Below, in pieces: positions 8,092 through 37,881 of a stretch of DNA of 37,881 nt (position 1 is the stretch's first letter; the number at the start of each line of letters is the position of its first letter). Source of the DNA: a virus. Its lineage: Duplodnaviria; Heunggongvirae; Uroviricota; Caudoviricetes. Made by a program: the position numbers and the translations under genes. The DNA lies in IMG/VR virus record IMGVR_UViG_2713896896_000009, positions 1-37,881 of that record. One strand, given 5' to 3'. Under the pieces are notes generated by a model that did not search any database, had not been told where the DNA came from, and saw only the letters and a list, made by a program, of their open reading frames with translations.

Positions 8092-8097
8092 CCCTCC

Positions 8098-8409
8098 ATG
8101 GCGACATTAACCAGAAGAATAAGTTTCTATCTGAAGCCAGCCGCCGTCAAGAACGAAGGCAAAGCATGCGCCTGGCTGGACAGCCTTACACCAGAAGCCC
8201 GCAAAAGCGGCCAACGCGTGGCTTTTCTGGCCGGGCTGGCACTTCTGAAAATGAATCCGGCAGAGGCTTACCGACTGGCTGCATGGGCTGATGATGAGGC
8301 GTTATCAGTGACACAAACCAGGGCAGAACGCCACATGTTACAGCCAGCGCCCACCGCACAGATAACCAGTCAGATAGCTGGAAATATCCGGGCGTTATTT
8401 CCCGAATAA
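8098..8409 (+). CDS. parR: ParR-like centromere-binding adaptor
   Basis: 103 aa directly after parM; FYLKPA...WLDSLTPEAR...AFLAGLAL parallels the R1 ParR N-terminus (F.LNPD...LDSIP..ER...AALTAGLAL). Confidence 0.7.
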   Translation: MATLTRRISFYLKPAAVKNEGKACAWLDSLTPEARKSGQRVAFLAGLALLKMNPAEAYRLAAWADDEALSVTQTRAERHMLQPAPTAQITSQIAGNIRALFPE

Positions 8410-8472
8410 CACAACATCAGGGCGCATCCGCCCTGATGACTTTAATCCGGGAACATAAACAAGGGGGACACA

Positions 8473-8814
8473 ATGCAACACATTGACAGAGAAAAAGCGC
8501 AGCGACTGATTGAGCGGATGGAAGCGCTGGCGAAAGAAGAAAATGTCAACATCCAAAAAATAGCAGAATGTGGCCAGATAGTTCTTCGTCGTGAAAAAGA
8601 CATCAAGCAACTGATGTCTGGCGAAACCAGCAAAACACGGATTCCAGGCGAGAAAACGATTTATTGTAGCTTCTGCAATAAATCCCAGTACGAAGTCACA
8701 AAGGTGATTGCCGGACCGTCTGTTTACATCTGCAATGAGTGCGTGGATTTGTGCAATGAAATTATCAGGAGAGAAGCGACTGACCATGAAGAAGCGCGGA
8801 GATGCAACGATTAA
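8473..8814 (+). CDS. Stand-alone ClpX-type C4 zinc-finger domain protein
   Basis: The C-terminal half ([38 protein letters not shown]) closely matches the ClpX N-terminal zinc-binding domain; the AAA+ module is absent. The N-terminal ~60 aa is unrelated. Confidence 0.75.
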
Positions 8815-8882
8815 GTCGGGTAATGATATTGAGCAGGCGACTCACTGGATGCCGATGCCAGAAGCGTTTCAGGAGGTTAACC

Positions 8883-9158
8883 GTGGCTAACCTGCAACTT
8901 GCCGTCAAAGGTGAATACTTCGATGCCATGATTCGCGGAGAGAAAACAGAAGAGTATCGCCTGGTTAATTCATACTGGTCTCGCCGTATATTGGATAAGA
9001 GCTATGATCGATTGATTATTACTAAGGGGTATCCGAAACGCGACGATTTAAGTCGCAGAATTGATGTCCCATATGGGGGATATGAGATCAAGGTGATAAC
9101 ACATCCACATTTTGGACCAGAGCCAGTAAAAGTATTTGCTATTAAGTTGACTCAATGA
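8883..9158 (+). CDS. ASCH/PUA-like domain protein
   Basis: GTG start after CAGGAGG chosen inside track ORF 8802-9158; GEYFDAMIRGEKTEEYR resembles the ASCH beta-barrel signature. Domain call is tentative. Confidence 0.5.
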   Translation: MANLQLAVKGEYFDAMIRGEKTEEYRLVNSYWSRRILDKSYDRLIITKGYPKRDDLSRRIDVPYGGYEIKVITHPHFGPEPVKVFAIKLTQ

Positions 9159-23411: not shown

Positions 23412-23948
23412 TTATTCTGGCTTTTGTGGCCATTCAGGATTTGCCGTATCCACGTGGCTAACCAGAACGCTGTAGCGTTCCCAGGCATCCAGCTGTGTAC
23501 GTTCCTCATCTGTTGCCAGATTCATCCTGACGGCACGTTCCAGCAGCTGGATGACTGATTCAGCTTCGGAAAGCAAAGCTGCTTTTTGTGATTCAGCCTG
23601 CTGTTGTAATTCATCTTCTGTATAGACTCTTTTAATTACAGCACCATCCTTAATCATCCAGTTGCCGGAAATATCAGCGCGTCGGTTTGCCGTAATATTG
23701 GGTAACTCGATCACACTCATTCCCTCTGGATTAATCAGGGATGCGTCTTTCTCTATGCAGCAAATAATACCATCCTGGTTATATGCCACTTTTAACGTGT
23801 CTGGCTGGAAATTTTTTTGTTCCTCATACCAGTTCTTACCTTCTTCCGACCATAACCAGACAACATCAAATTCTTTTGTAAGTTGATACTGTTCGATAGT
23901 TTTTGGATTTCCTGCTTTAATATTTTTTAAATGCATCATATTAAGCAC
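23412..23948 (-). CDS. Alternative tail fibre assembly chaperone (inverted copy)
   Basis: 178 aa, recognisably related to the plus-strand gpG copy ([14 protein letters not shown]...[22 protein letters not shown]). Confidence 0.82.
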
Positions 23949-25058
23949 GTCCTACATTGTACCACTGACCATTAATATATTTCTGAACAGGTGCATAAAC
24001 AGGCCATTCCCAGTCGTCATCAAAATTCCCGCCAGTGAGAACATATCCCGCCGGAAGTGTTCCACCTTCGCCACCCCATTTTATCCCGCTCTGGTTAGCT
24101 CCCATGCGAATGTCACGCACATAGCGGGAATCAAAATTTCCGTAATCTGATGGGTTAACACGTCCGGTAACATTTAACCCATGCCCAATTGAAACAGCAC
24201 CATTGGCGTTGTTAATAGTAAGTGGTCTTAAATTATTCCATGAGCCAAATCTGTCACCGGATGCAGTCAGCATAAAATAAGTATCTTTGCCGTCATTTCT
24301 GATAAAGAAACCATAATTGCCATAAGCAACGCGAAGACCATTGGCATAGAGCGATGTAATTTCACCTCTTGAACGGAGACCATAAGCGGAGCTGAGTGAT
24401 AATTCTTCCTGAGCGTCATAGTTTCCTGTCGCCCAGCGAATTACCCCGCCCTGTACTGTTTCGTGCCAGATAGTATCTCCTTCTCCACCACGAAACTTTC
24501 TGAGATATTTTTTGCCGCCTCTGGTGCCTGAACATAAGGCCGTAGACATATAGGCATTCTGGCTTCCACTATCCTGATTAATAGTTCCAGACATAGAATC
24601 GCCGTAACGGTTCCAGTCACGCCGCCAGCCAGGAGCATAGTTGTCCCCGTGGTTAATATAAGTAAATTGCGCGCTTGTAGCGCCCCCACCGCTTGATGTT
24701 GTTGGTGTGGTAATACGAATAGTCATTGCAGACTTTATTCCCATTACCTCAATAACAGCGCCAGCAAGATGAATATTGCCACAGCCCGTATCGGTAATAA
24801 GTTTATTATTGGCATATGACCAGGAGCCTTTGCACATCCAGTATGGGTGATTAAAAGCGCCTACCGAATCAAGCCACTCAATAAACTGAGCTGTAGTCCA
24901 GTTTCCACCTTCTGTGCTGTAAGAGCCGCTAAAAGCACGCGCTGCACTAATATTTTTTGCAAAAGTGTCTTTACCTGGAATATCTGCGCCGTTCTGGTTT
25001 TTCTGCAATGCGCCAGCGGCCTGATTTACCGTTTCCTGCAAACCGAGGTTTTTGATAA
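23941..25058 (-). CDS. Alternative tail fibre C-terminal module, currently in the silent orientation
   Basis: The minus-strand ORF begins at the gix site with the LGLQE junction and ends in an [11 protein letters not shown] motif; it has no N-terminal domain of its own. Confidence 0.75.
25031..25058. repeat. gix-like crossover site (right)
   Basis: gtttcctgcaaaccgaggtttttgataa; its reverse complement matches the left site at most positions. Confidence 0.7.
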
Positions 25059-25088
25059 TGGTCGTTTCTGGCCCACATGGCATGATTT

Positions 25089-25712
25089 GTGCTTTTGAGC
25101 GGGAGATTCAACGTGCTGATTGGCTATGTACGCGTGTCAACAAATGACCAGAACACGGATTTGCAACGCAATGCGCTCAATAGCGCAGGATGTGAACTGA
25201 TTTTTGAAGATAAAATCAGCGGAACAAAATCAGCCAGACCGGGATTGAAAAAACTGCTCAGAACGCTGTCAGAAGGCGATACGCTGGTTGTCTGGAAACT
25301 GGACAGGCTGGGCAGAAGCATGAAACACCTGATCACACTGATTGAGGAATTACGGGAAAAAGGTGTCAATTTTCGTAGTCTGACGGATTCAATTGATACC
25401 AGTACACCAATGGGGCGCTTTTTCTTCCACGTGATGGGCGCCCTGGCTGAAATGGAACGTGAATTAATTGTTGAGCGAACACTGGCCGGACTGGCAGCAG
25501 CACGCGCACAGGGGCGCATTGGTGGGCGTCGCCCGAAACTGACAAAAGAGCAACATGAGCAAATAGCAAGGTTGATTAAAAACGGCCATGACAGAAAACA
25601 ACTGGCCATAATTTACGGTATTGGTATATCGACGATTTATCGTTACCACCCCGCGGGAGAATCAACCGGAACAACAGATAAGACCAGAGGAAACAAAAAA
25701 CCGCTAATCTGA
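25089..25712 (+). CDS. Serine DNA invertase, Gin/Pin/Hin/Cin family
   Basis: LIGYVRVSTNDQNTDLQRNAL and the downstream resolvase fold with a C-terminal HTH; adjacent to the invertible segment. The start may instead be the in-frame GTG at 25113. Confidence 0.92.
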   Translation: MLLSGRFNVLIGYVRVSTNDQNTDLQRNALNSAGCELIFEDKISGTKSARPGLKKLLRTLSEGDTLVVWKLDRLGRSMKHLITLIEELREKGVNFRSLTDSIDTSTPMGRFFFHVMGALAEMERELIVERTLAGLAAARAQGRIGGRRPKLTKEQHEQIARLIKNGHDRKQLAIIYGIGISTIYRYHPAGESTGTTDKTRGNKKPLI

Positions 25713-25734: not shown

Positions 25735-26229
25735 TCAGAACAACCCTTTAACTGAACTGGTCGCGCTGTTAAGGGATGCTGTCACCTTATCTTTAAGGCC
25801 GGACAGCATATCACTGAACGCTGAGGATTGCAGGCGTTCCCGCAAATCCTCATCACAGCGTTCAAGGGTCAGGGAAAACTCTATCTTTTTCGCTTTCCCG
25901 TAGCGATCCAGTTCAGAGCGGGTCGTGCTCGTTTCGGTCAGAACATACATGCCGTAAATCTGCCCGACGCCATCAATCAGAGGCCACGGGCGCCCCATAT
26001 ACGCCTGCGTGGTCAGCAGCGACAGCGACACTTCGCCGCCTGTAATCTCAGGATAAAGCACGCCGGAAAGAACGATGCGATCATCACCTGCACCGATATA
26101 CTGCCAGCTTGCTGAACGGTTAACGCGCTCGTTTTTCACATGTCGCCAGCTTTTGTTTTGCTGTAACTGCTGATGCGGCAACGTGCGCAGCTCAAAAACA
26201 AACATGCCGTAGATCATCATCATGGCCAT
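25735..26229 (-). CDS. U: Tail protein, P2 gpU family
   Basis: 164 aa; parallels P2 U (WRHV.N.RVNR, LSGVLYPEITGG, WPLIDG.G.IYGMYV). Confidence 0.85.
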   Translation of the reverse strand: MAMMMIYGMFVFELRTLPHQQLQQNKSWRHVKNERVNRSASWQYIGAGDDRIVLSGVLYPEITGGEVSLSLLTTQAYMGRPWPLIDGVGQIYGMYVLTETSTTRSELDRYGKAKKIEFSLTLERCDEDLRERLQSSAFSDMLSGLKDKVTASLNSATSSVKGLF

Positions 26230-26235
26230 GACTCC

Positions 26236-29073
26236 TCAATCTTTATCGTAAAAACTGCCACGCCCGGCACGGGCACGCCGTTCCATTTCTGCCCTGACCA
26301 TTTCACCGACCAGTTTCGCCAGTTCGCGAGGATTCTGCGTAACAACGTTATGCAGATGGACATGAATTTCACCACCAAATCCGGGGATCGCAGCCTCCCG
26401 GCTGCGGGAAGATGCGGAAACGGGCGCAACTGGCGCACGTGCGGCCTCCACGACCGGACGGGAGCTTGCTGCAACAACAGGGGGCAGCGCCGGAGATAAC
26501 GGAGCCGGGGGCGCGGGAGTGATATTGATTGCAGGAAGAGCCTTGTTGCTCTGCGCAACCTTTCGCTCCTGCCACTCCCCACGAACAGCAAGCGCACGGG
26601 GCAAATTCTTAAAGACAATATCACCGGGGCCGATACGCTTTTTCGTCTCATCAACCAGCTTGCCTGTGTTATCTGCAATTTTGCTGAGCCTGCGCAGCGT
26701 GCCAGTGTTGTTGTCCGTGAGCGGCTTGTTGTCTTTAGGCTTATCGCCTCCGGTCCCTGTTTCCGCAGATTTCGGCGGATTGATTTTTGCCAGGTCCCCC
26801 TGAAGCAAAGCAACCTTGTCCTGAAGAATGGCCGCACGCTGCGCGTCTTCGATTTTCTTTCTCGCCCTTTCCGCTTCATCTGGAAGGACGCCAAGTTTTT
26901 CCAGTATCCATGCCAGCGTATCCAGCAGCATTTTTGCAGGCGTCAGGACAAGCTGTAACGCACCGCCAAGAACGTTGCCGAACACCTCGCCAGCACTGGT
27001 GCATTTATCCAGCGTTTCCTTGCTGGATTCCATCGGTGACAGCAGCGATGTAAACCAGTTAAAGACCTGAATCACGCCATCACGAACCAGTTCGAAAACA
27101 GGGCCAAACCGTTCAAAGGTTTCGCGCAACGGGGCCAGCCGCTCCATAATCCCGCTGAACACCCCGGCAAAAAATGCCCTGATTGGGTCCCAGTATTTCC
27201 AGATGAGAACGGCAGCTCCGGCAAGCGCAGCTACGATAAGACCGACCGGGCTGAACAACGCCCCGATAGCGCCTCCCAGTAAAGAGACGGAACCCGCCAC
27301 CATTCCCCACAGCGCTGGCAGGACCCTGACAGCATTCATTGATCCGGTCAGGAGGGAAAAACCAAGACGCAGTTTTGCCAGCGGGCCAGCAAGCACCCCA
27401 AGAGCCAGTGACAACGAGCCAACCGTTGCAGTCATTGCCAACAGCGCACCGCCTGCAATCAGTAGCTGGCGCGTCAGTGCCGGATGGGCCTGCGCCAGCT
27501 CCGTCACCTTTGAGACCACCCGAGTGAGCCACTGCGTGACAGAGCGCAGCGGACCGTCAATCAGATCCGCAATGCGGATACGCAGCCCCTCCCATGCACT
27601 GCCGAGTGATTTCAGGTCGCCATCAAGGTTATTAGCCATAACCTTTGCCGTGCGTTCAGCCTCACCGTGTGCGCCTTCAAGTTCTTTTCTCAGTTTGGGC
27701 AGAGAACCGTCACCTGCCGCATCAACGAGGGCCATAAATGACGTGAAGGCCTCTTCTCCGGCTATGTCCTTAAAGAACGATACCCGGTCAACTTCCCCGT
27801 ATTTGCGGGTGGCTTTATAAAGGTCGGCCAGCACATCCTCCATCGGGCGCATTTTGCCGTTCGCATCAGAGACAGCCACACCAAGCTCTTTCAGCGCCTC
27901 TGCTGCCGCCTTTGGCGGTGATGCCAGACGAGCAAGGCTGGCACGCATTGCCGTCCCGGCATCACTCCCTCTGATACCCATATTCGCCAGCACGCCCGCC
28001 ATCGCTGCGGCCTGCTCCAGCGATATTCCCAGCTTACCCGCCACCGGACCTGCATATTTCATGGTTTCGCCCAGCGCGCGAAGGTCGGTGTTAGTACGGG
28101 TAAACGCCGCAGTAAGTGTGTCACCGACCCGGTCCATCTGGTCAGCAGAGAGGCCGAACTGCGTCAGGATATTTGAGCCAATATCCGCCGTCTCGCCAAG
28201 GTCCATACCGCCAGCCGTTGCCATGCTCAGCACGCCGGGAAGCGCAGCCTGAATGGCTTCTGGTGTGAAGCCAGCCATAGCAAGAAATGCCTGCCCACTG
28301 GCGGCATCACTCGCAGTAAACTGCGTTTCAGAGCCGAGCTTTAGCGCCTGCTCACGCAGCGCCTTAAACTGCGGGCTGTTCTGGTCAATTCGCGTCAACG
28401 CCTGCACACGGGACATCTCTTTCCCGAATCCGATAGCGGGCTGCAAAAAACGCCCGGCAGCATAGCCGCCAGCCGCTGCCGCACCAGTTGCCAGCGCACC
28501 ACCCGTTTTCAGTTTTCCCGCTGTTTCCTGCGCGCGTGAATACTGCTCACGCGCCCGCGTTACACGCGCAAGCGCCTGTCGTTCGCGTTCAAGCTGGTTG
28601 TTGTACTGTTCGGTGCGTCTGATGGCCTGCTGGATGGTGTTATCGCTGCCTGTCAGGGAAATACCGTGGCGTTTAAGCTCTCCGCCAAGCTCCCGCATTT
28701 TCTGAATTTCCCGTGTGCGCGATTCATTCAGGCGTTCAAGCCGGGTGCTTAACTGCTGCATCAGCCTTTGTTGTTTTTCGCTGAGCACCGTACCCGTGCG
28801 TTGTAACTGATGAAGGGCGTTAAGCTGGCGTCGTGCTTTCACGATGCCAGCATCCGCTTTACTGACAGCATCGCGGGCGCGCTCAAATGAACGCGCCTGA
28901 CGCTCGAGATTTTTGATCGCCCCCTGCGTTCGCTGGATGGAGTCACCAAGCTGTCCCATCAGGCGGCGGGCGTTTTCGGCTGGCCGGGTCAGCCTGTCAA
29001 CAGCACTGAAGGCGACCCGAATGTCAAGAGTCTTCATCGTCTGCATTCCCACTGCGAAGTGCCGCCCGCTCAC
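26236..29073 (-). CDS. T: Tail tape-measure protein, P2 gpT family
   Basis: 945 aa, alanine/glycine-rich with TM-like central repeats, between E' and U. Confidence 0.9.
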   Translation of the reverse strand: MSGRHFAVGMQTMKTLDIRVAFSAVDRLTRPAENARRLMGQLGDSIQRTQGAIKNLERQARSFERARDAVSKADAGIVKARRQLNALHQLQRTGTVLSEKQQRLMQQLSTRLERLNESRTREIQKMRELGGELKRHGISLTGSDNTIQQAIRRTEQYNNQLERERQALARVTRAREQYSRAQETAGKLKTGGALATGAAAAGGYAAGRFLQPAIGFGKEMSRVQALTRIDQNSPQFKALREQALKLGSETQFTASDAASGQAFLAMAGFTPEAIQAALPGVLSMATAGGMDLGETADIGSNILTQFGLSADQMDRVGDTLTAAFTRTNTDLRALGETMKYAGPVAGKLGISLEQAAAMAGVLANMGIRGSDAGTAMRASLARLASPPKAAAEALKELGVAVSDANGKMRPMEDVLADLYKATRKYGEVDRVSFFKDIAGEEAFTSFMALVDAAGDGSLPKLRKELEGAHGEAERTAKVMANNLDGDLKSLGSAWEGLRIRIADLIDGPLRSVTQWLTRVVSKVTELAQAHPALTRQLLIAGGALLAMTATVGSLSLALGVLAGPLAKLRLGFSLLTGSMNAVRVLPALWGMVAGSVSLLGGAIGALFSPVGLIVAALAGAAVLIWKYWDPIRAFFAGVFSGIMERLAPLRETFERFGPVFELVRDGVIQVFNWFTSLLSPMESSKETLDKCTSAGEVFGNVLGGALQLVLTPAKMLLDTLAWILEKLGVLPDEAERARKKIEDAQRAAILQDKVALLQGDLAKINPPKSAETGTGGDKPKDNKPLTDNNTGTLRRLSKIADNTGKLVDETKKRIGPGDIVFKNLPRALAVRGEWQERKVAQSNKALPAINITPAPPAPLSPALPPVVAASSRPVVEAARAPVAPVSASSRSREAAIPGFGGEIHVHLHNVVTQNPRELAKLVGEMVRAEMERRARAGRGSFYDKD

Positions 29074-29242
29074 GCCAGCTAACCACTTCGCCGGGCGTCA
29101 TCATGAAGATTTCGGCGGGCGACCAGTTAAAAATAACGGCAATATCTGCCACAAAGTCTTCTATGTGCTCAAAGCACACAACCGTGATCAGGCTTCCGTC
29201 GCCTGTTCGTTCTTCCCGCCAGAGTCCGCACCGCTCAAAAAA
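29024..29242 (-). CDS. E' extension of the tail assembly chaperone, reached by -1 frameshift
   Basis: The -1 frame is open from the slippery heptamer to the stop at 29024 and overlaps the T start, as in P2 E+E'. Confidence 0.6.
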   Translation of the reverse strand, partial: FFERCGLWREERTGDGSLITVVCFEHIEDFVADIAVIFNWSPAEIFMMTPGEVVSWRERAALRSGNADDEDS

Positions 29243-29556
29243 TTTACGGCAACCACACATAACTGAATAAAGTCACAGGATGCCATTTTTTTGATCGTCA
29301 CTTCATCCAGTCGCGGTGATGTCACGCGTGACAACAGCGTAAACATGGATTCCGCTTTCAGATTCAGCACATCAGACAGCGACAGACCACGCAGGGATCC
29401 AGCCTGCTCAATAGCCCCGGTGATCTCCACATACGTGATTTTTTCGTCGCCTCGCTCAATTGGCTGGGTAAGTTTTACGCCGCGCTCGCTGGTTTCTTTC
29501 GCAGTATCAGCAACCACCACAGCGTTTTCAGTATTGGTATTTTTCGTCTCTTTCAT
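29188..29556 (-). CDS. E: Tail assembly chaperone, P2 gpE family
   Basis: 122-aa ORF between FII and T on the same strand. Confidence 0.7.
   Translation of the reverse strand: MKETKNTNTENAVVVADTAKETSERGVKLTQPIERGDEKITYVEITGAIEQAGSLRGLSLSDVLNLKAESMFTLLSRVTSPRLDEVTIKKMASCDFIQLCVVAVNFLSGADSGGKNEQATEA
29236..29242 (-). other. Programmed -1 frameshift slippery heptamer TTTTTTG
   Basis: Minus-strand T-TTT-TTG within E; slipping -1 enters the E' frame. Same heptamer type as P2 E/E'. Confidence 0.55.
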
Positions 29557-29610
29557 CAGAAAACTCCTTTCAGTCAGAGGCGACGCACTGCGCCGCCTGC
29601 ATATTACTTA

Positions 29611-30123
29611 TCAGCCGAGCCCGAGCGCGGAGCGGATGCGGTCGGGTACAATGTCCTTGCCATCCTTCCGGTAGATGTGGTTCACCAGGTCAATTTCCCA
29701 CACCGGACGATCGTTAATACTCAGCTTGTAGTAGGTGTTTTTGACAGCGTAAGTGTGTGACGTGGCTTCGCCCTGTTTGGCCTCCCCCATATCAATTTCC
29801 GTCACACGCCCGCGCATCTCGATTTCATACAGGTCGCTTTCTGCATCGGTGTAGTATTCACCCGCAAAACGCAGCAGCGTGCCGTCCATTGTTCCGCCAT
29901 ATTTAAGGAACAGCGCACGAACGGCGCCCCCCATGACAAAACTCGCATCAAGCGCGGAATCGTCCAGACCGAGGTCGATACTCACCGCCCCCATCATGCC
30001 ACCACCACGATAGCTGTCGGTTTTACGCGTCAGTTTAGGCGGGGTGACAGACGTCACCTTACCCACTTCATTTTCACCATCCACAAACAGCGTAAAAAAA
30101 CGAAGATGTTTTGGTACGGCCAT
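29611..30123 (-). CDS. FII: Tail tube protein, P2 gpFII family
   Basis: 170 aa at the expected position. Confidence 0.88.
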   Translation of the reverse strand: MAVPKHLRFFTLFVDGENEVGKVTSVTPPKLTRKTDSYRGGGMMGAVSIDLGLDDSALDASFVMGGAVRALFLKYGGTMDGTLLRFAGEYYTDAESDLYEIEMRGRVTEIDMGEAKQGEATSHTYAVKNTYYKLSINDRPVWEIDLVNHIYRKDGKDIVPDRIRSALGLG

Positions 30124-31307
30124 TAAGCACCTCCAAGCACCGCAAATGCAGGACCAAAGAACTCATCAGTGAACGCCTGGTAAAGCTCCATATCTTCCAG
30201 CGGAGGAACGGGCGTATATTTATAGCGAATACGCACGCGCCCCTGTCGCAATTCTGTGGTGCTGTTATCCACGATGTCATACCAGCACGATGCGCCAATC
30301 AGTTTCCCGGCAGTAACCAGCGAATCAAGTTTTGCCCTCATAGCGCTGATAACATCCTTCACGTTCGCAGGCGTCAGTGGACTGTCGATGGTTTCAAACT
30401 GCGCTTCCGCAACCGTGTCAGCCAGCACCTGTGCGGTTCGGGTATACACCTCAAAAATGTAGGCGTTCGTTTCCGGCGTACGGTTACCCCAGAAGCGGAA
30501 CCCGTTGCGGCGAATGATGGTTGTGATTTCTTTGTTGTTGAGGCTGTTGGCATCGCTGTCTTCGGCCTGCAACGACCAGAACACATGCCTGGACATCCCC
30601 AGCACATTTTTGACCGGAACGTTGGACAGCGATTTGTGCCAGCCCTGCTCATGGTCAATGTACGCACGAAGGCCGCACGCATAGGCTGGCGCGGGGAAAA
30701 CCTCATTCTCGCCACTTTTCGGGTTGTAAGCGATGAAGTCCGGCCACAGGAGCATCAGCTCGCGTTCGTTGAATTTTTCACGGTATGCAATGGCTTCAGC
30801 CATCGTGTTACAGCCATGACAGGAGGCATACACAAATGCGCGCAGTTTACCTGCAATCACGCACAGGGATTTTGTCACCGCCTCCGTGTCCAGCCCCGGC
30901 GCGGCCAGAATACGCGGACGGTATCCGATGCTTTCATCCTGCTCTGCAACAAGCAGCGCATACATCCCCGTATAGCTGCCGTCGGATTCAGAACCACCGA
31001 TAACCAGTTGATCCTGTGTTTTTCCGTCTTCTTCTTTGTGTTCAGCCACGCGAACGACGATCACCTTTGTGCTCACCTGGTCTGCAATGGGTTTCAGCGC
31101 ACGGTACAGCGTCCCCGTTGTCCCGCATTTTCCCAGCACGTCATTGACGCGGGTCACTAATGCAGGCTTGTTCAGCGGGAACAGCTTCGCGTCCGCATCG
31201 TCCGCCGTTGCCACGATACCGATAACGCTGGAATCAACGTCGTTAATTGCTGTTACCAGGTCGGTACTTTCCGTAACGCGGGCGCCATGAAAGCGAGTTT
31301 CACTCAT
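30123..31307 (-). CDS. FI: Tail sheath protein, P2 gpFI family
   Basis: 394 aa; start of the minus-strand tail operon. Confidence 0.92.
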   Translation of the reverse strand: MSETRFHGARVTESTDLVTAINDVDSSVIGIVATADDADAKLFPLNKPALVTRVNDVLGKCGTTGTLYRALKPIADQVSTKVIVVRVAEHKEEDGKTQDQLVIGGSESDGSYTGMYALLVAEQDESIGYRPRILAAPGLDTEAVTKSLCVIAGKLRAFVYASCHGCNTMAEAIAYREKFNERELMLLWPDFIAYNPKSGENEVFPAPAYACGLRAYIDHEQGWHKSLSNVPVKNVLGMSRHVFWSLQAEDSDANSLNNKEITTIIRRNGFRFWGNRTPETNAYIFEVYTRTAQVLADTVAEAQFETIDSPLTPANVKDVISAMRAKLDSLVTAGKLIGASCWYDIVDNSTTELRQGRVRIRYKYTPVPPLEDMELYQAFTDEFFGPAFAVLGGA

Positions 31308-31464
31308 AGTTCCAGCCCCTTGTATCCGTTAAATGATTCGGCAACAATCATCACCCACCACGCGCGTAATCTCATCCCTGCGCCGTTCTTGCCGCCCGGC
31401 GACAACAAAAAGCAGTAACCACGCCCGCACACACATGCGACCATGCTGCACAGGGAGGGAGCCG
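31308..31464. promoter_or_regulatory. Divergent intergenic region between FI and D (late promoters expected)
   Basis: 157 bp between divergent starts; no Ogr-type TGT-N12-ACA site could be confidently placed. Confidence 0.3.
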
Positions 31465-32574
31465 ATGATTGACACCACCATGCAACTGTTCAACCAGAGT
31501 ACTGACCCCGTGAAGATGCCTGATTTTGATATTCTCGCGGAGGGGAAAACGCTGTCCGGTGTGGCAGAACGCCTGATGAGCCTGTCACTGACCGACAACC
31601 GGGGATTTGAAGCAGACCAGCTAACCATCACGCTGGATGATGCTGATGGTCAGTTGCAGTTGCCGCCACGGGGCGCTCGCCTGACGGTTCTCATTGGCTG
31701 GAAAGGTGAACCGCTGACAGAAAAAGGCACTTACATTGTTGATGAAATTGCTCATGAAGGACCGCCCGACAGACTGACCATTTCAGCCAGAAGCGCAGAT
31801 TTTCGGGATGAATTTAACGTCAAGCGCGAAGTATCCTGGCATGATGTGACCGTTGAACGCGTGGTGTCTGCAATTGCTCACCGATACGGCCTGAAACCGC
31901 AAATCAGCGAAATGCTGATGGATATTGAAATCGACCACGCTGACCAGACCGAAGAAAGCGACATGTCCTTCCTTACACGCATGGCGGAAATGCTGGGCGC
32001 AATCACCACGGTAAAAAGCGGTAATCTGTTATTCATCATGCCAGGTGGTGGCGTGAACGCGCAGGGAAAACCATTACCATCGTTTGCCATCACACGCAGC
32101 AGTGGCGATCGCCATCAGTTCCGCATTGCTGACCGCGAAGCGTATACGGGGGTACGCGCTTACTGGCTTGATCTTAATTACGGGAAAAAGAAAAAAGTCA
32201 GCGTGAAACGCCGTAAACCGCCAAAACCCAAAAAGGAGAAAAGTAGCAGCCGTGAAGGTGATTATATGGAAGGCGCGGAAGGCAATGTGTTTGTGTTACG
32301 CAAGACTTATCAGAACGAGCAGGCAGCAAGACGCGCAGCGGCGGCAAAGTGGCAGCAGCTACAACGCGGAGCCGCAGCGTTCTCCATCACGCTGGCGCGT
32401 GGACGTGCAGAACTCTATCCCGAAATGCATGGCACGGTGACAGGCTTCAAAAGTGACATCGACAATCAGGACTGGATTATTGCAAAAGCCGAGCACACCA
32501 TTGATAACAGTGGCTTTACCACGCAGCTTGAACTTGAAGCAAAAATCCCGGAATGGATAGCAGAAACAGAGTGA
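31465..32574 (+). CDS. D: Tail/late control protein, P2 gpD family
   Basis: ATG at 31465 after GGGAGGGA; LSLTDNRG.EADQLTITL and the FI-proximal position parallel P2 D. Confidence 0.88.
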   Translation: MIDTTMQLFNQSTDPVKMPDFDILAEGKTLSGVAERLMSLSLTDNRGFEADQLTITLDDADGQLQLPPRGARLTVLIGWKGEPLTEKGTYIVDEIAHEGPPDRLTISARSADFRDEFNVKREVSWHDVTVERVVSAIAHRYGLKPQISEMLMDIEIDHADQTEESDMSFLTRMAEMLGAITTVKSGNLLFIMPGGGVNAQGKPLPSFAITRSSGDRHQFRIADREAYTGVRAYWLDLNYGKKKKVSVKRRKPPKPKKEKSSSREGDYMEGAEGNVFVLRKTYQNEQAARRAAAAKWQQLQRGAAAFSITLARGRAELYPEMHGTVTGFKSDIDNQDWIIAKAEHTIDNSGFTTQLELEAKIPEWIAETE

Positions 32575-32736
32575 GCAACTTAAATGTATTAACTCAGAAC
32601 GGATCAACACACTCACAACATAGAGTCAATATAGCTGCTCGCTTTGTTCCAGCAAGGATGCCTATTTCTAAGGAAAAACAGAGCAGAAACATATGGTGTT
32701 TTTCTACCTGACATCAGGGGTGGTAAGAATCATGCT

Positions 32737-32764
32737 TTGATAACCAATTGATAACTATTATTAT
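32737..32764 (+). promoter_or_regulatory. Candidate sigma70 promoter for the PIN-like gene
   Basis: TTGATA, 16-bp spacer, TATTAT, about 35 bp upstream of the ATG at 32800. Confidence 0.3.
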
Positions 32765-32799
32765 ATTAATCTAACACCATTGACATAGTTGAGGTTTGA

Positions 32800-34302
32800 A
32801 TGAACAAAAAGCTGTATTTATTCCCAGACTCAAACATTTTTCTACAATGCAAGGCCTTGACGCAGGTAAATTTTTCCGAGATTACTGCTTGTGATGAAGT
32901 ATGTATCATTATTACAAGGCCCATTCAGCAAGAGATTGACCGCCAGAAAGGGCAAGGTAATTCCCGCCTATCCAAAAAAGCAAGGAAGGCTGCTAGCCTA
33001 TTTAATCAAGTAGTTGATTCAACTGACATGACTCTTGTTATTCGTGAACGCTCGCCGCGAGTTTTTCTTACCATGGATCTAAGCCTGAAACCATGTGAAC
33101 AGTTATCTGAACAATTGGATTATCAGGAGGCCGACGATCGTTTTGTTGGTATTGCGGCAGGGTATTGCGCTGACGATCCAGATTCGGAGGTGGCAATCAT
33201 TACCAATGATAGCGGTCCACGTTTTTCAGCAATAAAACATAATATAATCTGCTATAAAGTGCCTTCTTCATGGTTGCTTCCTGCTGAGCCAGATGAAAAG
33301 GATAAACAAATTAAATTGCTGGAAGCTAAGCTGAAGCAATTCACTCAGTCTATGCCCGATTTCAGCATTAAAGCAGCCGATGACGAGCAATTAAATATTG
33401 TACTTCCTTATTATACAGCTTTATCTGAATATGAAGTTGATAATTTGCTTTGTCAACTAACGGATGCATTCCCATTGGTTACAAACTTTGACAATGAACA
33501 AACTACCTCACAATCACTAGAAAAAATCATCAAGTCATTTAGTCAACAGGAGTATTTCCCTGTATCAGCAGATGATATTTCTCTTTATAAAGAAAAACAT
33601 TATCCACTTTGGAAAAAGCAGTGTGAAGAAATACTGAAAAACTGTCATACTCATATTAATCCGAAGGCAATAAAATACCCGCTGTCGTTTTTATTACAAA
33701 ACACAGGTTATACTATCGCTGAACGTGCTGTGGTAACATTTACAGCAAAAGGAGATTTTCGTCTGTGTGGATTTAATTGGGAGATAATGGAAGAGCTGAC
33801 TGAAAGCAAAAGGATTGACCTACCTTCAGCCCCTACCGCACCCAAAGGAAAATGGCGTAGTGTATGTGGCGTAACAGAAAGAATGCCTTACGCTTGGGGA
33901 GCTTTGGAAACACCGCTATCCAGTATAATTTCAAAAGAAATTGGTCCTTTGTTATCTCTTACTCCAACAGAAAGGGATAAAAACGATTTTTATTATAAAG
34001 AAAAGAGAAATGTGCCAGTTCAAGTTGTATCACTGGAATGCGAAGAGTGGCGTCATCAAGTCAAAGAAGAAATATTCCCGTTGTTCGTATATACAGCCAA
34101 CAAACCAAAGAAAGTGAATGGTGCAATTGAGGTAAGAGTTGATGCAAATAACCTTACCAATCCGGTCATTAAAACATTTAAATTAAAAATAACTATAGAA
34201 GAACATAGTGCATTTTCAACCATAACAGAAATGGTGCAGACATACATTCAAGAGCAGAAGAAAAGACAGAAAAGTTCTATTAGCGCACAAATCAAAACAT
34301 GA
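32800..34302 (+). CDS. 500-aa protein with N-terminal PIN-like nuclease domain and unassigned C-terminal region
   Basis: Clean ORF with GAGG RBS. The N-terminus shows the PIN arrangement of acidic residues (LFPDSN, DEVCIII, ADDRFVG, IITNDSG). The gene is visibly AT-rich relative to flanking phage genes and is inserted between D and ogr. Confidence 0.6.
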   Translation: MNKKLYLFPDSNIFLQCKALTQVNFSEITACDEVCIIITRPIQQEIDRQKGQGNSRLSKKARKAASLFNQVVDSTDMTLVIRERSPRVFLTMDLSLKPCEQLSEQLDYQEADDRFVGIAAGYCADDPDSEVAIITNDSGPRFSAIKHNIICYKVPSSWLLPAEPDEKDKQIKLLEAKLKQFTQSMPDFSIKAADDEQLNIVLPYYTALSEYEVDNLLCQLTDAFPLVTNFDNEQTTSQSLEKIIKSFSQQEYFPVSADDISLYKEKHYPLWKKQCEEILKNCHTHINPKAIKYPLSFLLQNTGYTIAERAVVTFTAKGDFRLCGFNWEIMEELTESKRIDLPSAPTAPKGKWRSVCGVTERMPYAWGALETPLSSIISKEIGPLLSLTPTERDKNDFYYKEKRNVPVQVVSLECEEWRHQVKEEIFPLFVYTANKPKKVNGAIEVRVDANNLTNPVIKTFKLKITIEEHSAFSTITEMVQTYIQEQKKRQKSSISAQIKT

Positions 34303-34545
34303 GGGTGTACTCAAATAATACAATGCTATAGTAAATCTATAAGTGCATAACTATTTCCTGATCTTTTCCCAAAATAGATGACAGGATAAAAAACATTCCA
34401 ATCTTTTACAGGCTTTGGATAAATCTTATCAAAGCCTATTTCTTCAAGAGTTAAATCACCGCTTTTCGCTCGAAACGGACTGGCTGTTGGAGTATGAGCC
34501 AGAACAACTTAGAATAGCCCCTGCACTACGTTAAGGGAGGTCGCT

Positions 34546-34806
34546 ATGTTCCGTTGTCCGCTTTGTCGCGCATCTGCCCGTATCCGCACCAGTCGTCCTG
34601 AAAATGATTCAAACACCGTGCGGCAAAAGTATTACCAGTGTAACAATCTAGAATGCGGCGTATGCTTCTCAACACTGGAAGCTTTCCATAAATTCACATC
34701 GAAACACGCCTCCGGCGTTCACTCTTCAGAAGGTATCCCGTGGCATGAGCTGCCAGCTTCACACAGGGGAAACAATCAGATGAGTTTGCCTTTGCCTCAA
34801 AATTAA
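34546..34806 (+). CDS. ogr: Ogr/Delta-type zinc-finger late-gene activator
   Basis: MFRCPLCRASARIRTSR...YYQCNNLEC matches the P2 Ogr C2C2 zinc-finger N-terminus. Confidence 0.85.
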   Translation: MFRCPLCRASARIRTSRPENDSNTVRQKYYQCNNLECGVCFSTLEAFHKFTSKHASGVHSSEGIPWHELPASHRGNNQMSLPLPQN

Positions 34807-34866
34807 CAGGCAGAATTGCCGGAGTAACAAAAAAGCGATAGATTACGCGCGGGTGCCTTTCGGCTA

Positions 34867-35079
34867 ATGGCTGGAGGGAATACCCAAAGGCCGGATGTGG
34901 AAAGGCCCCGGAAAACATCTCTGTTTAACCGAGGCCCTGACCATCTAACCTTAGCAAGTGATAGGTTAGCGCCTCCACAAAAAAGGAGCAAGCGCTATGT
35001 CGCAAAAATCGCTGATAGCCATCACGTTCTGCGTGACGGTAATCCTCATCATCTGGATGCTGCACGGTTCGCTGTGTGA
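34867..35079 (+). CDS. mok-like overlapping reading frame
   Basis: 70-aa ORF overlapping hok in another frame, as in hok/mok/sok loci. Confidence 0.4.
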   Translation: MAGGNTQRPDVERPRKTSLFNRGPDHLTLASDRLAPPQKRSKRYVAKIADSHHVLRDGNPHHLDAARFAV

Positions 35080-35137
35080 AATACGGATGAGCTTCTGGGG
35101 AGCGGAGTTTGCGGCGTTCTTACAGTGTAAGCAGTAA
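34997..35137 (+). CDS. hok: Hok/Gef-family type I toxin (46 aa)
   Basis: MSQKSLIAITFCVTVILIIWMLHGSLCEIRMSFWGAEFAAFLQCKQ has an N-terminal TM followed by the Hok signature SLCEIR and a C-terminal Cys; AAGGAG RBS. Confidence 0.75.
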   Translation: MSQKSLIAITFCVTVILIIWMLHGSLCEIRMSFWGAEFAAFLQCKQ

Positions 35138-35146
35138 GGAAACCGC

Positions 35147-35168
35147 GACGGGGGAGTAATCCCCCGTC
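35147..35168 (+). terminator. Stable hairpin immediately after hok
   Basis: gacggggga-gtaa-tcccccgtc. Confidence 0.4.
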
Positions 35169-35399
35169 AATCGGGGGCTAGGGTAAGGTCGATAAGGCAC
35201 CCTATCTCACAGCTCTAAATGCAAAAATTCCATGAAACTGTGGGATTTTTGCATCACATACTGATACAGACCAGCCCTTCTATATGCCTCACTCTATACC
35301 AGCTAATCAATTGACACTTATCAATAAAAAAAAATCTGATAAAATCAAAATGTTTTGTAACAAATATCAACTCGTATTAATCCAAAGGAGGCGGATTAC

Positions 35400-35732
35400 A
35401 TGGCATTAATCAAATGTCCTGAATGCCAGAAAGAGGTGAGCGATTCAGCATTGTATTGCCCTGCTTGTGGTAAACAACTACAAAAACTTAAGCGTTCATT
35501 TTTTGGACGGATCATTAAGTGGGTTTTTATATTATTTAATATTTTTATGATCTATACGCTTTTAGTTGGACTAGGAGGCACTAGTGAAATAATAAATAAT
35601 GCCACATCCGATGCCGAAAAAACCGGTGCAGTTATTGGTACAGGCTTAGGTTTAATTACCATTGGAAGCTTATGGGTTATTGGTGATATCATCATCGGAA
35701 TTTTAGTATTTCTTACTAAACCAAAGGGATAA
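35400..35732 (+). CDS. Zinc-ribbon membrane protein (N-terminal CPxC...CPxC, two TM segments)
   Basis: MALIKCPECQKEVSDSALYCPACGK followed by two hydrophobic helices; AT-rich; AAGGAGG RBS. Confidence 0.6.
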   Translation: MALIKCPECQKEVSDSALYCPACGKQLQKLKRSFFGRIIKWVFILFNIFMIYTLLVGLGGTSEIINNATSDAEKTGAVIGTGLGLITIGSLWVIGDIIIGILVFLTKPKG

Positions 35733-35736
35733 TAAA

Positions 35737-36630
35737 ATGAAAAATATAATTTTTTCTATAGGTGCATCATTTATATCAATTAGTGTACTGCCTGTTCACG
35801 CAGCAACTGAACATAAGAACTTCAATGCAGTACTCCAGTGCCGAGCAATAGAAAATAATAAAGACAGACTTTCTTGTTACGATAAGTCAATACAACCGAC
35901 TCGAACGAAAGTTGCTGAAAAATTCGAAAGCAGAGATCAATGCCCTGATGAGAAAGATGATGATAGACGTTTATCTTGTTATGATCGTTTCTTTTCTCCA
36001 ACATTTACTCCATCTGTAAACTCAAAATCTAAAACGGAAAAGCCAGTAACAACAGAGGCTCAGCAACCAAATCTTTCTGAGATATCTAAATGTCGTGCAG
36101 AAAATGATAAAGAAGCCAGACTAAACTGCTACGATAAACTATTCCCACAGGATAAAGCCGTTCAAGCTGAATCAAAATTAGAGAAAGCCACAGATGTAGG
36201 AAAATGGCACACATCCATTACTACATCGCCAATTGATGATTCGAAAAATGTAATTTTATCGTTAGAAAGTGATGATTATATCAGAACTCCATTTGGAGAA
36301 ACGGTTACTCCTACTCTGTTTATAGCTTGCCGAGAAAAGAAAACAGAAGTATTTCTTAGTTGGGATGTATATTTAGGCCTTGAACAAACCAGCATGCTTT
36401 ATCGCCTTGATAAACAGAAAGCAGTTGAGCGAAACTGGCTAGTATCTACAGATACAAAGGCTGTTTTTTATAAAGGTAATGACATTGATTTCATCCGAAA
36501 ACTAGCCAACTCAAGCAAAATGTATACAAAAATAACGCCTTATAATGAGAGCCCCGTAAGTGCAACTTTCAATTTAAACGGCCTGTCAAACGCGCTAAAA
36601 CCGCTTCAAGCTGCTTGTAACTGGAAATAG
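35737..36630 (+). CDS. Secreted protein with three tandem Cys-containing repeats and an unassigned C-terminal domain
   Basis: Signal peptide (MKNIIFSIGASFISISVLPVHA); repeats LQCRAIENNKDRLSCYDK, DQCPDEKDDDRRLSCYDR and SKCRAENDKEARLNCYDK; starts 4 nt after the upstream gene; AT-rich. Confidence 0.6.
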   Translation: MKNIIFSIGASFISISVLPVHAATEHKNFNAVLQCRAIENNKDRLSCYDKSIQPTRTKVAEKFESRDQCPDEKDDDRRLSCYDRFFSPTFTPSVNSKSKTEKPVTTEAQQPNLSEISKCRAENDKEARLNCYDKLFPQDKAVQAESKLEKATDVGKWHTSITTSPIDDSKNVILSLESDDYIRTPFGETVTPTLFIACREKKTEVFLSWDVYLGLEQTSMLYRLDKQKAVERNWLVSTDTKAVFYKGNDIDFIRKLANSSKMYTKITPYNESPVSATFNLNGLSNALKPLQAACNWK

Positions 36631-36664
36631 TATTAAATCATGTGGCTTAGCCACAATCACAGAC

Positions 36665-36696
36665 AACACAAAGCCCGTGAAAACGGGCTTTGTGTT
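36665..36696 (+). terminator. Rho-independent terminator after the two-gene cassette
   Basis: Stem aacacaaagcccgt / acgggctttgtgtt, loop gaaa, followed by a T-containing tract. Confidence 0.6.
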
Positions 36697-36702
36697 ATCT
36701 GT

Positions 36703-36721
36703 ACTCGAAAATGTGGTCACT
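36703..36721. repeat. Candidate attR core (gtggtcactgcgtggacac)
   Basis: 17 of 19 identical to 11-29 in direct orientation; lies between the last AT-rich cargo gene and host flk. Confidence 0.35.
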
Positions 36722-36897
36722 GCGTGGACACGCGCTGACATAAATCCTTTTACATCAATAAATTAAGTCATCATTTTTTTCATCAACAAGGATTTTCACG
36801 TTTGTGGTACCTGTATGAGACGAGAGTTAACCAAACAAGTGTGCCATAATCTCGCGCCCAGGCATACTTGCGATGATTTCAGGTATAAGGATACATA

Positions 36898-37881
36898 ATG
36901 ATACAACCTATTTCCGGCCCTCCTCCCGGGCAACTGCCAGACCGGGAAAACAGCGCAGGCAATCAGCCTTTATCCAGTCTGCAACGTACCGCCCTGGAAA
37001 GCTTGATGACCAAAGTAACCTCGCTGACGCAACAACAGAGAGCGGAGTTATGGGCCGGCATCAAACACGACATCGGCCTGCCAGGCGATTCACCTTTACT
37101 CTCGCGCCACTTCCCCGCTGCGGAACATAACCTCGCGCAACGTCTGCTTGCCGCGCAAAAGAGCTATTCTGCTCGTCGGCTTTTAGCCCAGTTAGGGGAA
37201 TATTTACGGTTGGGAAATAACCGTCAGGCGGTTACGGATTACATCCGAAATAACTTTGGTCAGACACCGCTTAACCAACTCTCGCCAGAACAATTAAAGA
37301 CCATTCTTAACCTGTTACAGGAAGGGAAAATGGTTATTCCTCAACCACAGCAACGTCAGGCTACCGATCGTCCTTTATTACCGGCGGAGCATAATACGCT
37401 TAAACAACTGGTGACTAAACTCGCCGCTGCGACAGGGGAACCCAGCAAGCAGATCTGGCAGTCGATGCTGGAGCTTTCTGGTGTGAAAGATGGCGAACTA
37501 ATCCCGGCAAAACTGTTTAACCATCTGGTCACCTGGTTGCAGGCGCGTCAGAGCTTAAGCCAACAAAATACCCCGACGCTGGAATCGCTTCAGATGGCGC
37601 TAAAGAAACCGCTGGATACCAACGAGCTGGCAGCACTATCCGCGTATATCGAGCAAAAATATGGCCTTTCCGCGCAATCCGTCCTTTCTTCTGTACAGGC
37701 TGAGGATATCCTGAACCAGCTCTATCAACGGCGGGTTAAAGGGATTGATCCACGAGACATCCAGCCACTGCTCAATCCCTTTCCACCATTAATGAACACA
37801 TTGCAAAATATGGCGACACGTCCCAGCGTGTGGATTTTGTTAGTCGCCATCCTCATCATGCTGGTCTGGCTGGTACGTTAA
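36898..37881 (+). CDS. flk: Flagellar regulator Flk (host chromosomal gene)
   Basis: MIQPISGPPPGQ N-terminus, PLLSRHFPAAE, LPLGNNRQAV, IPQPQQ and a C-terminal membrane anchor (WILLVAILIMLVWLV) match enterobacterial Flk as I recall it; complete ORF ending at the window edge. Confidence 0.8.
   Translation: MIQPISGPPPGQLPDRENSAGNQPLSSLQRTALESLMTKVTSLTQQQRAELWAGIKHDIGLPGDSPLLSRHFPAAEHNLAQRLLAAQKSYSARRLLAQLGEYLRLGNNRQAVTDYIRNNFGQTPLNQLSPEQLKTILNLLQEGKMVIPQPQQRQATDRPLLPAEHNTLKQLVTKLAAATGEPSKQIWQSMLELSGVKDGELIPAKLFNHLVTWLQARQSLSQQNTPTLESLQMALKKPLDTNELAALSAYIEQKYGLSAQSVLSSVQAEDILNQLYQRRVKGIDPRDIQPLLNPFPPLMNTLQNMATRPSVWILLVAILIMLVWLVR

Follow-up and report, generated by a model that had tools for sequence, protein, structure and literature searches.

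The closest described analogue of the gene reported here appears to be pSlfn5/RorSlfn5, in which a Schlafen ribonuclease (RNase) is followed by a C-terminal immunoglobulin (Ig)-like, integrin-like sensor (Perez Taboada et al., Nat Microbiol 2026, PMC13056530). In RorSlfn5, the T5 tail assembly chaperone sets off the cleavage of tRNA anticodon arms; in pSlfn5, specificity follows the Ig-like domain when it is swapped, and divergence is faster in the sensor than in the nuclease (PMC13056530). Our subject is a candidate defence RNase of 500 amino acids (aa), with a PIN-type domain at its N-terminus, encoded by a low-GC cassette between genes D and ogr of a P2-like prophage. The prophage lies in a stretch of 37,881 nucleotides (nt), IMG/VR record IMGVR_UViG_2713896896_000009, and this whole stretch is called the window in what follows.

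PIN domains have already been linked to immunity in the accessory DNA of E. coli, where DS-3 and DS-5 are catalysis-dependent defence systems; DS-3 is a single gene without an antitoxin, and its product is thought to be auto-inhibited (DefensePredictor, PMC13092281). In P2-like prophages, the old/tin site between gpA and gpQ is an established defence hotspot (PMC9122126, PMC9519451, PMC13586616), the tail-gene hotspot is an established defence reservoir (PMC9122126, PMC9519451), and less populated cargo sites lie near att, int and the repressor (PMC13586616; 10.1101/2024.10.15.618418).

The comparison of the window by BLAST with the empty sites of three close E. coli relatives (L015-L017) shows that the gpD-ogr junction is interrupted by a cassette of 1,919 bp, since homology to the empty sites ends at position 32582 and picks up again at 34502. 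The distance between D and ogr is 1,971 nt in the window and 42 nt in these relatives; phage P2 has 81 nt, which hold the ogr promoter, between the stop of D and the start of ogr, in agreement with the initial annotation, according to which ogr directly follows D in P2. The 7-bp direct repeat CAACTTA is found in two copies around the insert and in a single copy in the empty sites. The composition of the insert is also different from that of its surroundings, with a GC content of 0.38 versus 0.53 (0.379 for the stretch 32575-34545). The AT-rich gene described in the initial annotation is a real open reading frame (ORF), with a GC content of 0.381 (D, 0.527; remainder of the prophage, 0.529), and its GC content at third codon positions is 0.313 versus 0.548 for the phage backbone. 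Nothing supports a transposon origin, as neither a transposase nor a convincing terminal inverted repeat was found. Two imperfect inverted matches of 19 nt each (79% and 84% complementary) occur between the conserved flanks (32697-32743 and 34377-34444), their order not being mirrored and their length being no greater than that of chance pairs within the ORF. The TAGAAT before ogr is preserved by the 7-bp duplication, and everything further upstream of it is insert DNA with a terminator-like hairpin; the expression of this essential late activator may differ from that in the empty-site relatives.

The N-terminal domain matches the Pfam family PIN_4 (PF13638) over aa 10-151, with an E-value of 5.7e-8 and a score of 33.6 bits, as compared to a gathering score of 21.9, and has the Rossmann-like alpha/beta/alpha fold of PIN domains. 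Among 36 homologues, E45, D112 and D137 do not vary and at least 90% keep D10, and all four acidic residues are invariant in an alignment of 14 PIN-domain sequences; they also align with the SMG6 motifs LVPDTN, NELD, NDD and TDD. The copy in the window is full length and retains every residue that is invariant in the family; from the catalytic residues and the PIN_4 score, the PIN domain looks active, with a predicted metal-dependent nuclease activity. The acidic pattern of a PIN-type nuclease, on which the initial annotation relied, is therefore present with its fold and catalytic set intact; of the two catalytic residues named there, D10 was correct, and the aspartate of ITNDSG, numbered D131, is D137. 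The nearest structural and sequence relatives of the domain are the PIN domains of the SMG6, Nmd4 and Dis3 type, which belong to eukaryotic RNA-decay factors with unrelated architectures and whose similarity is marginal (family profile against 2hww, E = 0.008). A search of PDB sequences with the full-length profile gave only a spurious match to BBA03, and NCBIfam returned only noise for the 500-aa protein.

The protein is not a toxin of the VapBC type, in which a PIN protein of about 130 aa is encoded next to its antitoxin, as it has 500 aa and its gene is without such a partner in all loci. It shares a (here predicted) PIN ribonuclease effector with DS-3 and DS-5, and a single-gene organization with DS-3; nevertheless, DS-3 (WP_022645725.1) has 340 aa and a split VapC-like PIN domain, and DS-5 consists of a 376-aa PIN_12 protein with a partner, whereas the window protein is a PIN_4 protein with a C-terminal module of 335 aa. 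Identity with DS-3 or DS-5 was therefore rejected on the described differences in size, PIN subfamily and partner, and neither the accession of the window protein nor the start of its sequence was found in the DefensePredictor supplements examined.

The remainder of the protein, about 350 aa that were initially left as unassigned, turned out to be a confidently modelled and conserved module of several parts, though without a family in Pfam, NCBIfam or PADLOC. In the AlphaFold2 model, which was built from 36 homologues (mean predicted local distance difference test, pLDDT, of 85; predicted template modelling score, pTM, of 0.54), the module is organized around an Ig-like beta-sandwich that, as modelled, resembles the ectodomains of integrins. 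Its conserved residues are W271, C275, H283, N301, G303, C414, W417, R418, H419 and N451. Its sequence diverges faster than that of the PIN domain: compared with the window protein, the mean identity is 33% for the C-terminal module and 49% for the PIN domain, and the corresponding means over all pairs of sequences are 34% and 47%. A search of viral folds recovered no full-length analogue of the window protein and a PIN-type match in Medusavirus.

A profile of aa 185-500 recovered 1,312 representatives (clusters at 50% identity) from 1.84 billion proteins, 661 of them with E-values below 1e-30. Nearly all of the best 150 of these 1,312 representatives have 490-510 aa and carry the PIN domain of the family, and most of the exceptions are truncated metagenomic fragments. 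In one representative, P0062 (486 aa), the PIN domain is replaced by a Schlafen AlbA_2 domain (PF04326, aa 16-147), and the C-terminal module is the same; P0062 is 27% identical to the window protein over aa 141-484 of the latter (E = 3e-32); the window protein itself has no AlbA_2 match. A search with P0062 gave about 27 clusters of Schlafen fusions, P0196-P0221 among them, from Chloroflexota and Dehalococcoidia. The C-terminal module of P0062 recurs in PIN_4 proteins at 40-55% identity, and its Schlafen domain recurs on other C-termini at 65-85% identity; from these cross-identities, we infer that effectors and C-terminal modules have recombined recently and in both directions. PIN and Schlafen domains are both families of RNases. 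A word-indexed search with the profile of the C-terminal module gave no additional effector fusions, and no Schlafen fusion was recovered from Enterobacterales, a tblastn search of plasmids having yielded only a degraded Pseudomonas copy. The motif LEC[EK][QE]WRH, for which 185,579 species genomes were scanned, turned up at 49 loci from many phyla, which comprise 38 of the PIN type, 3 of the Schlafen type and 8 fragments. Next to one Schlafen-fused relative (L013, 11651-12109) there is a gene with a Panacea (SocA) antitoxin domain.

The window protein thus shares with pSlfn5 the design of a single protein of similar size, with a predicted N-terminal RNase and a C-terminal Ig-like sandwich that resembles integrins; in both cases the C-terminal part diverges faster than the nuclease, and some relatives of the window protein combine this C-terminal module with a Schlafen domain. 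It differs from pSlfn5 in that its effector is a PIN_4 domain and not a Schlafen (AlbA_2) nuclease, the type defined by the motif Ex4(E/D)xK, and in that its Schlafen-fused relatives come from Chloroflexota and not from Enterobacterales. This likeness is one of architecture and structure only: what we propose is that the protein would work like pSlfn5, not that it belongs to the same family, and we claim no homology between the sensors.

The insert is present in 59 complete E. coli genomes, always with at least 99% identity, the copies with 99.5% identity being intact, and the 3' part of D is found in 1,378 of the 5,426 complete E. coli genomes. The carriers include prophages of E. albertii and of Shiga-toxin-producing E. 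coli (STEC) of the serogroups O111, O26 and O157. Relatives with 68-73% protein identity occupy other sites in other P2-like prophages: one lies between gpS and gpV in a Rahnella prophage, and others lie in the gpA-gpQ (old/tin) hotspot. An integrative and conjugative element (ICE) in Pectobacterium has a more distant relative as cargo, and plasmids of Robbsia, Rhizobium and other genera carry further ones. Cassettes at two other P2 hotspots have about 1.83 kb (roughly 32655-34480) in common with that of the window. Non-coding DNA moves along with the gene, about 145 nt on the upstream side and about 190 nt on the downstream side, and the GC content of the gene is 4-17 points below that of its surroundings in all eight loci compared. 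The cassette is mobile cargo (a "moron") of a P2-like prophage, both its insertion and its mobility between hotspots being observed. No homologue was found by megablast and tblastn in 50,697 sequenced phage genomes, and PHROGs assigned no family, giving only one weak C-terminal match. Because the gene is polymorphic, absent from these phage genomes and without a PHROG family, and because its site varies among prophages, we consider it an accessory gene and not a structural or core gene of the phage. The empty sites, the 7-bp repeat and the low GC content at the eight loci all agree with the foreign-composition cargo proposed initially, and the possibility raised along with it, that of a conserved structural gene of related phages, is contradicted by these data.

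In these respects, the gene resembles the P2 cargo old, tin and fun/Z and the hotspot systems of Rousset 2022 and Vassallo 2022, which are AT-rich and autonomously expressed accessory genes that exclude other phages, and its relatives occupy the old/tin (gpA-gpQ) and tail-gene hotspots. The D-ogr junction, on the other hand, is not a classic hotspot, and lies within or next to the less populated att/repressor region.

The conserved flanks carry the putative signals for expression of the gene. The sigma-70-like promoter candidate lies within the upstream stretch that is conserved among cassettes at three hotspots, and an own promoter, as predicted from sequence, is better supported by these conserved ~145 nt than by the consensus scan. 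The terminator-like hairpin is also conserved at the three hotspots; its stem is retained in an RNAalifold analysis of the three cassettes, with one change that affects both sides of the stem, and was missed by a simple terminator scan because it contains a bulge. Neither flank of the cassette encodes a conserved small ORF that could be a partner or an antitoxin. A minus-strand open frame of 60 codons without a listed start (34329-34508) lies in the 3' flank; its peptide motif EEIGFD.(I/V)Y.KP recurs in the L002 and L007 cassettes, where the frames are broken by indels, and it may be the relic of an older neighbouring gene. Rfam gave no RNA family within the insert, the match in the scanned stretch being the sok-like element past ogr.

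Outside Enterobacterales, the family shows another genomic association. Of 52 further loci, 17 are flanked by type I restriction-modification (R-M) genes according to tblastn searches with HsdM, HsdS and HsdR; this sample was seeded by a single motif, and its ranking was by similarity to P0062. About a dozen loci have the complete arrangement hsdM-hsdS-gene-hsdR on a single strand, the gaps being 0-60 nt. Among 137 neighbour ORFs from 16 of the 49 motif loci, the most common Pfam and PADLOC families are the three type I R-M subunits, followed by AbiEii. A random gene would be this near a type I system in well under 1% of cases, as estimated from system and genome size. HsdM and HsdR are 68-85% identical across the R-M-linked loci. 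All Enterobacterales loci examined, the window included, have the gene by itself, with no R-M gene near. One type I operon (L010, 5612-16020) also includes a VapBC-like pair, formed by a Phd-family antitoxin and a PIN toxin, and a further PIN gene; the surroundings of L010 and L013 look like small defence or toxin-antitoxin islets.

Considering these results together, we think it probable, with some reserve, that the window gene encodes a single-protein, phage-triggered defence RNase with a C-terminal sensor. In the mechanism we propose, the N-terminal PIN_4 domain, as a metal-dependent endoribonuclease, would act as effector, and the module around the Ig-like beta-sandwich would act as a sensor or regulator that keeps the nuclease silent. 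The trigger would be a phage-derived cue, most likely a phage protein that is bound directly; the activated PIN domain would then cut cellular and phage RNA (tRNA, rRNA and mRNA are candidates), and this cleavage would lead to translation shutdown and to a smaller burst of the superinfecting phage. The cargo status, the residence in hotspots, the R-M linkage and the modularity of effector and sensor all suggest a role in defence, and the idea of a nuclease with a regulatory domain is strengthened by the exchange of PIN and Schlafen domains on the same C-terminal module and by the defence-hotspot and R-M context. Of the initial proposal of a nuclease fused to a large domain as a defence or abortive-infection effector, the structure and the cargo status stand, and abortive infection, defence and RNA cleavage are retained as predictions.

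Several observations weigh against this proposal. PADLOC 2.0 (2023) gave no family at E <= 1 for the window protein and, since no model matched, the defence role is assigned by guilt by association. The pTM of only 0.54 makes the relative placement of the domains unreliable, and hence also the geometry of any autoinhibition. The R-M linkage of one-third of the loci may reflect a single mobile subclade because the sample is biased toward the P0062 clade. The hok/sok module just downstream of ogr leaves room for a role in prophage maintenance. Finally, the promoter-like sites of the region are at chance level (10 seen versus 7.2 +/- 2.7 in shuffles); thus, with regard to the promoter that had been ascribed to the gene, the site and its conserved flank are there, and the scan count does not exceed that of the shuffles.

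The R-M linkage invites a comparison with PrrC, since in the EcoprrI locus prrC lies between hsdS and hsdR (see also PMC3874168), the same position in which a gene for a latent RNase would be found in some relatives of the window gene, although only in relatives. By analogy, the protein could be a guard that binds to a type I R-M complex, or keeps watch over it, and whose RNase is freed when anti-restriction proteins of the Ocr, ArdA or Stp type disable restriction; the prophage copies would then work with the type I enzyme of the host. The position within the same operon recurs in several phyla, and the R-M genes and the PIN gene appear to travel as one module. Nevertheless, many unrelated defence genes are located inside type I R-M operons without being functionally coupled to them; Pfam, NCBIfam and PADLOC revealed neither similarity to PrrC or RloC nor an ABC-ATPase or anticodon-nuclease domain, and the copy in the window has gpD and ogr as neighbours, not R-M genes. 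Because every Enterobacterales copy stands alone, we rate such guarding below the sensor-effector proposal and consider it unlikely. A reading that joins both ideas, to which we also give a low probability, would take the C-terminal module as a widely shared sensor platform for PIN and Schlafen effectors, with the type I restriction complex as its native partner and C275, H283, C414 and H419 as a metal or ligand signal site; within it, the protein could be a PrrC-like second line that fires once restriction has been neutralized, the prophage copies using the type I enzyme of the host.

The carriage of the gene by prophages, ICE and plasmids, and its vicinity to hok/sok in the window and to VapBC and Panacea modules elsewhere, would also be expected of a selfish maintenance toxin, in which the PIN RNase stabilizes the element or tunes host RNA and the C-terminal module is a built-in antitoxin or regulator that senses cues of the cell and not of a phage. 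We find this distinctly unlikely, as no locus has an adjacent antitoxin gene and the flanks lack a conserved ORF, a protein of 500 aa in which an Ig-like domain evolves fast seems better suited to recognize a variable ligand than to regulate itself, and the occurrence at three P2 hotspots (gpA/gpQ being an established defence hotspot) and in R-M operons points to immunity. The position at the end of the late tail-gene region, beside the late activator ogr, and the existence of PIN-type RNases in some viruses, such as Medusavirus, could indicate a nuclease of the lytic cycle or of counter-defence with which the P2-like phage degrades host RNA or the transcripts of a rival such as P4; this is very improbable for a gene that is missing from the phage genomes searched and from most related prophages, that is found in ICE, plasmids and chromosomal R-M operons without a phage, and whose apparent own promoter and terminator set it apart from the late operon. 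There are motif-bearing fragments and pseudogenes in other genomes (e.g., H68), and RefSeq and GenBank hold many partial copies of the protein, as would be the case for decaying passenger DNA without a current function; the full-length copy with all its invariant residues, the size of the family and the intact copies in the 59 complete genomes make this explanation the hardest to believe.

A fusion of a nuclease to a sensor carried as prophage cargo is of a familiar kind; this family, the exchange between PIN and Schlafen domains and the embedding in R-M operons appear to be undescribed in the literature searched. The family is not mentioned in Rousset 2022, Vassallo 2022, Moura de Sousa 2026 or the domain-centric study of 2026, and accession searches were empty; a name for it may already exist, as the release used for comparison was PADLOC 2.0 of 2023. 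If confirmed, the proposed function would add to the defence repertoire a sizeable family from multiple phyla that resides in prophages, ICE, plasmids and R-M operons, and an Ig-like module that drives two unrelated RNase effectors would be a natural domain-swap experiment on how nucleases are switched. The D-ogr junction would be a usable cargo site of P2-like prophages beside the gpA-gpQ and tail-gene hotspots, and the finding would bear on the phage susceptibility and typing of E. albertii and STEC (O111, O26, O157) lineages.

Table 1. Features of the D-ogr region of the window. Coordinates are positions in the window, and residues are numbered in the 500-aa protein.
Feature	Position	Strand	Remarks
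gpD (tail/baseplate hub), left neighbour	31333-32574	+	Pfam Phage_GPD, E = 2.8e-17
Left CAACTTA copy	32576-32582	.	Once in empty sites, twice here
Cargo cassette	32583-34501	+	Regulatory region, PIN gene and terminator-like hairpin; low GC
Sigma-70-like promoter candidate TTGATA-16-TATTAT	32737-32764	+	10/12 consensus matches; ends 36 nt before ATG
GAGG ribosome-binding site	32791-32794	+	Sequence inspection
500-aa ORF, PIN_4 nuclease domain and C-terminal module	32800-34302	+	Exact protein WP_059273743.1, Escherichia albertii
PIN domain, aa 1-155	32800-33264	+	Acidic D10, E45 (plus D47), D112 (plus D113), D137
C-terminal module, aa 166-500	33295-34299	+	AlphaFold2 model and conservation
Linker helix, aa 166-183	within 33295-34299	+	AlphaFold2
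Small alpha/beta unit, aa 188-223	within 33295-34299	+	AlphaFold2
Helical hairpin, aa 257-286	within 33295-34299	+	AlphaFold2
Ig-like beta-sandwich, aa 290-470, proposed sensor surface	33667-34209	+	Disordered loop at 359-388
Terminal helix, aa 472-499	within 33295-34299	+	AlphaFold2
Terminator-like hairpin, then AUUUCUUC	34410-34437	+	-11.1 kcal/mol, z = -2.3; conserved in cassettes at three hotspots
Right CAACTTA copy	34502-34508	.	Last bases begin the retained ogr -10-like TAGAAT (34507-34512)
ogr (late-gene activator), right neighbour	34546-34806	+	Pfam Ogr_Delta, E = 4.1e-13

The prophage of the window is complete. It begins with the integrase (1-1020) and includes the repressor C, cox, gpA, the portal and terminase, capsid, lysis and tail genes, followed by the tail fibre genes H and G, an invertase, an inverted F operon, D, the insert, ogr and hok/sok. 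D, as mechanically called, begins at 31333, and its true start is probably further downstream; in several E. coli copies (cf. L001, 8147-9000), RefSeq describes D as a 267-aa VgrG/Pvc8-family protein plus a pseudogene fragment, and in other E. coli copies as a full-length "late control D".

The tail operon FI-FII-E-T-U (25735-31307) is on the minus strand and inverted relative to P2. It adjoins a serine invertase of the Hin/Gin type (25089-25712, plus strand), which is preceded by an inverted alternative tail-fibre tip (23941-25083, minus strand) and an assembly chaperone (23412-23948, minus strand), so that the segment 23412-31307 looks like a host-range switching segment. The E. coli relatives also have the inverted F operon, and one examined relative has a serine O-acetyltransferase gene beside it.

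The gpA-gpQ hotspot of the window (7132-9158) contains ParM/StbA, StbB, a small zinc-finger protein of the ClpX type and a protein of 118 aa of unknown function, and none of these genes matched PADLOC 2.0. The same ParM/StbB pair adjoins a relative of the PIN gene in the gpA-gpQ hotspot of Enterobacter (L005).

To the right of ogr (34807-37881), the window contains hok, a zinc-ribbon membrane protein (35400-35732), a VasI/TagO-like protein (35737-36630) and flk. The hok/sok-like type I toxin-antitoxin module right after ogr is composed of a Hok ORF (34997-35137; PF01848) and a sok-like RNA (34851-35008) that scores 38.8 bits, under the Rfam gathering score of 59. This module is part of the prophage end, as it follows ogr in prophage copies at three chromosomal sites. 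The right flank (34807-37881) is only 93.6% identical to E. coli and, given also the identity of the PIN protein to an E. albertii RefSeq entry, the window comes from E. albertii.

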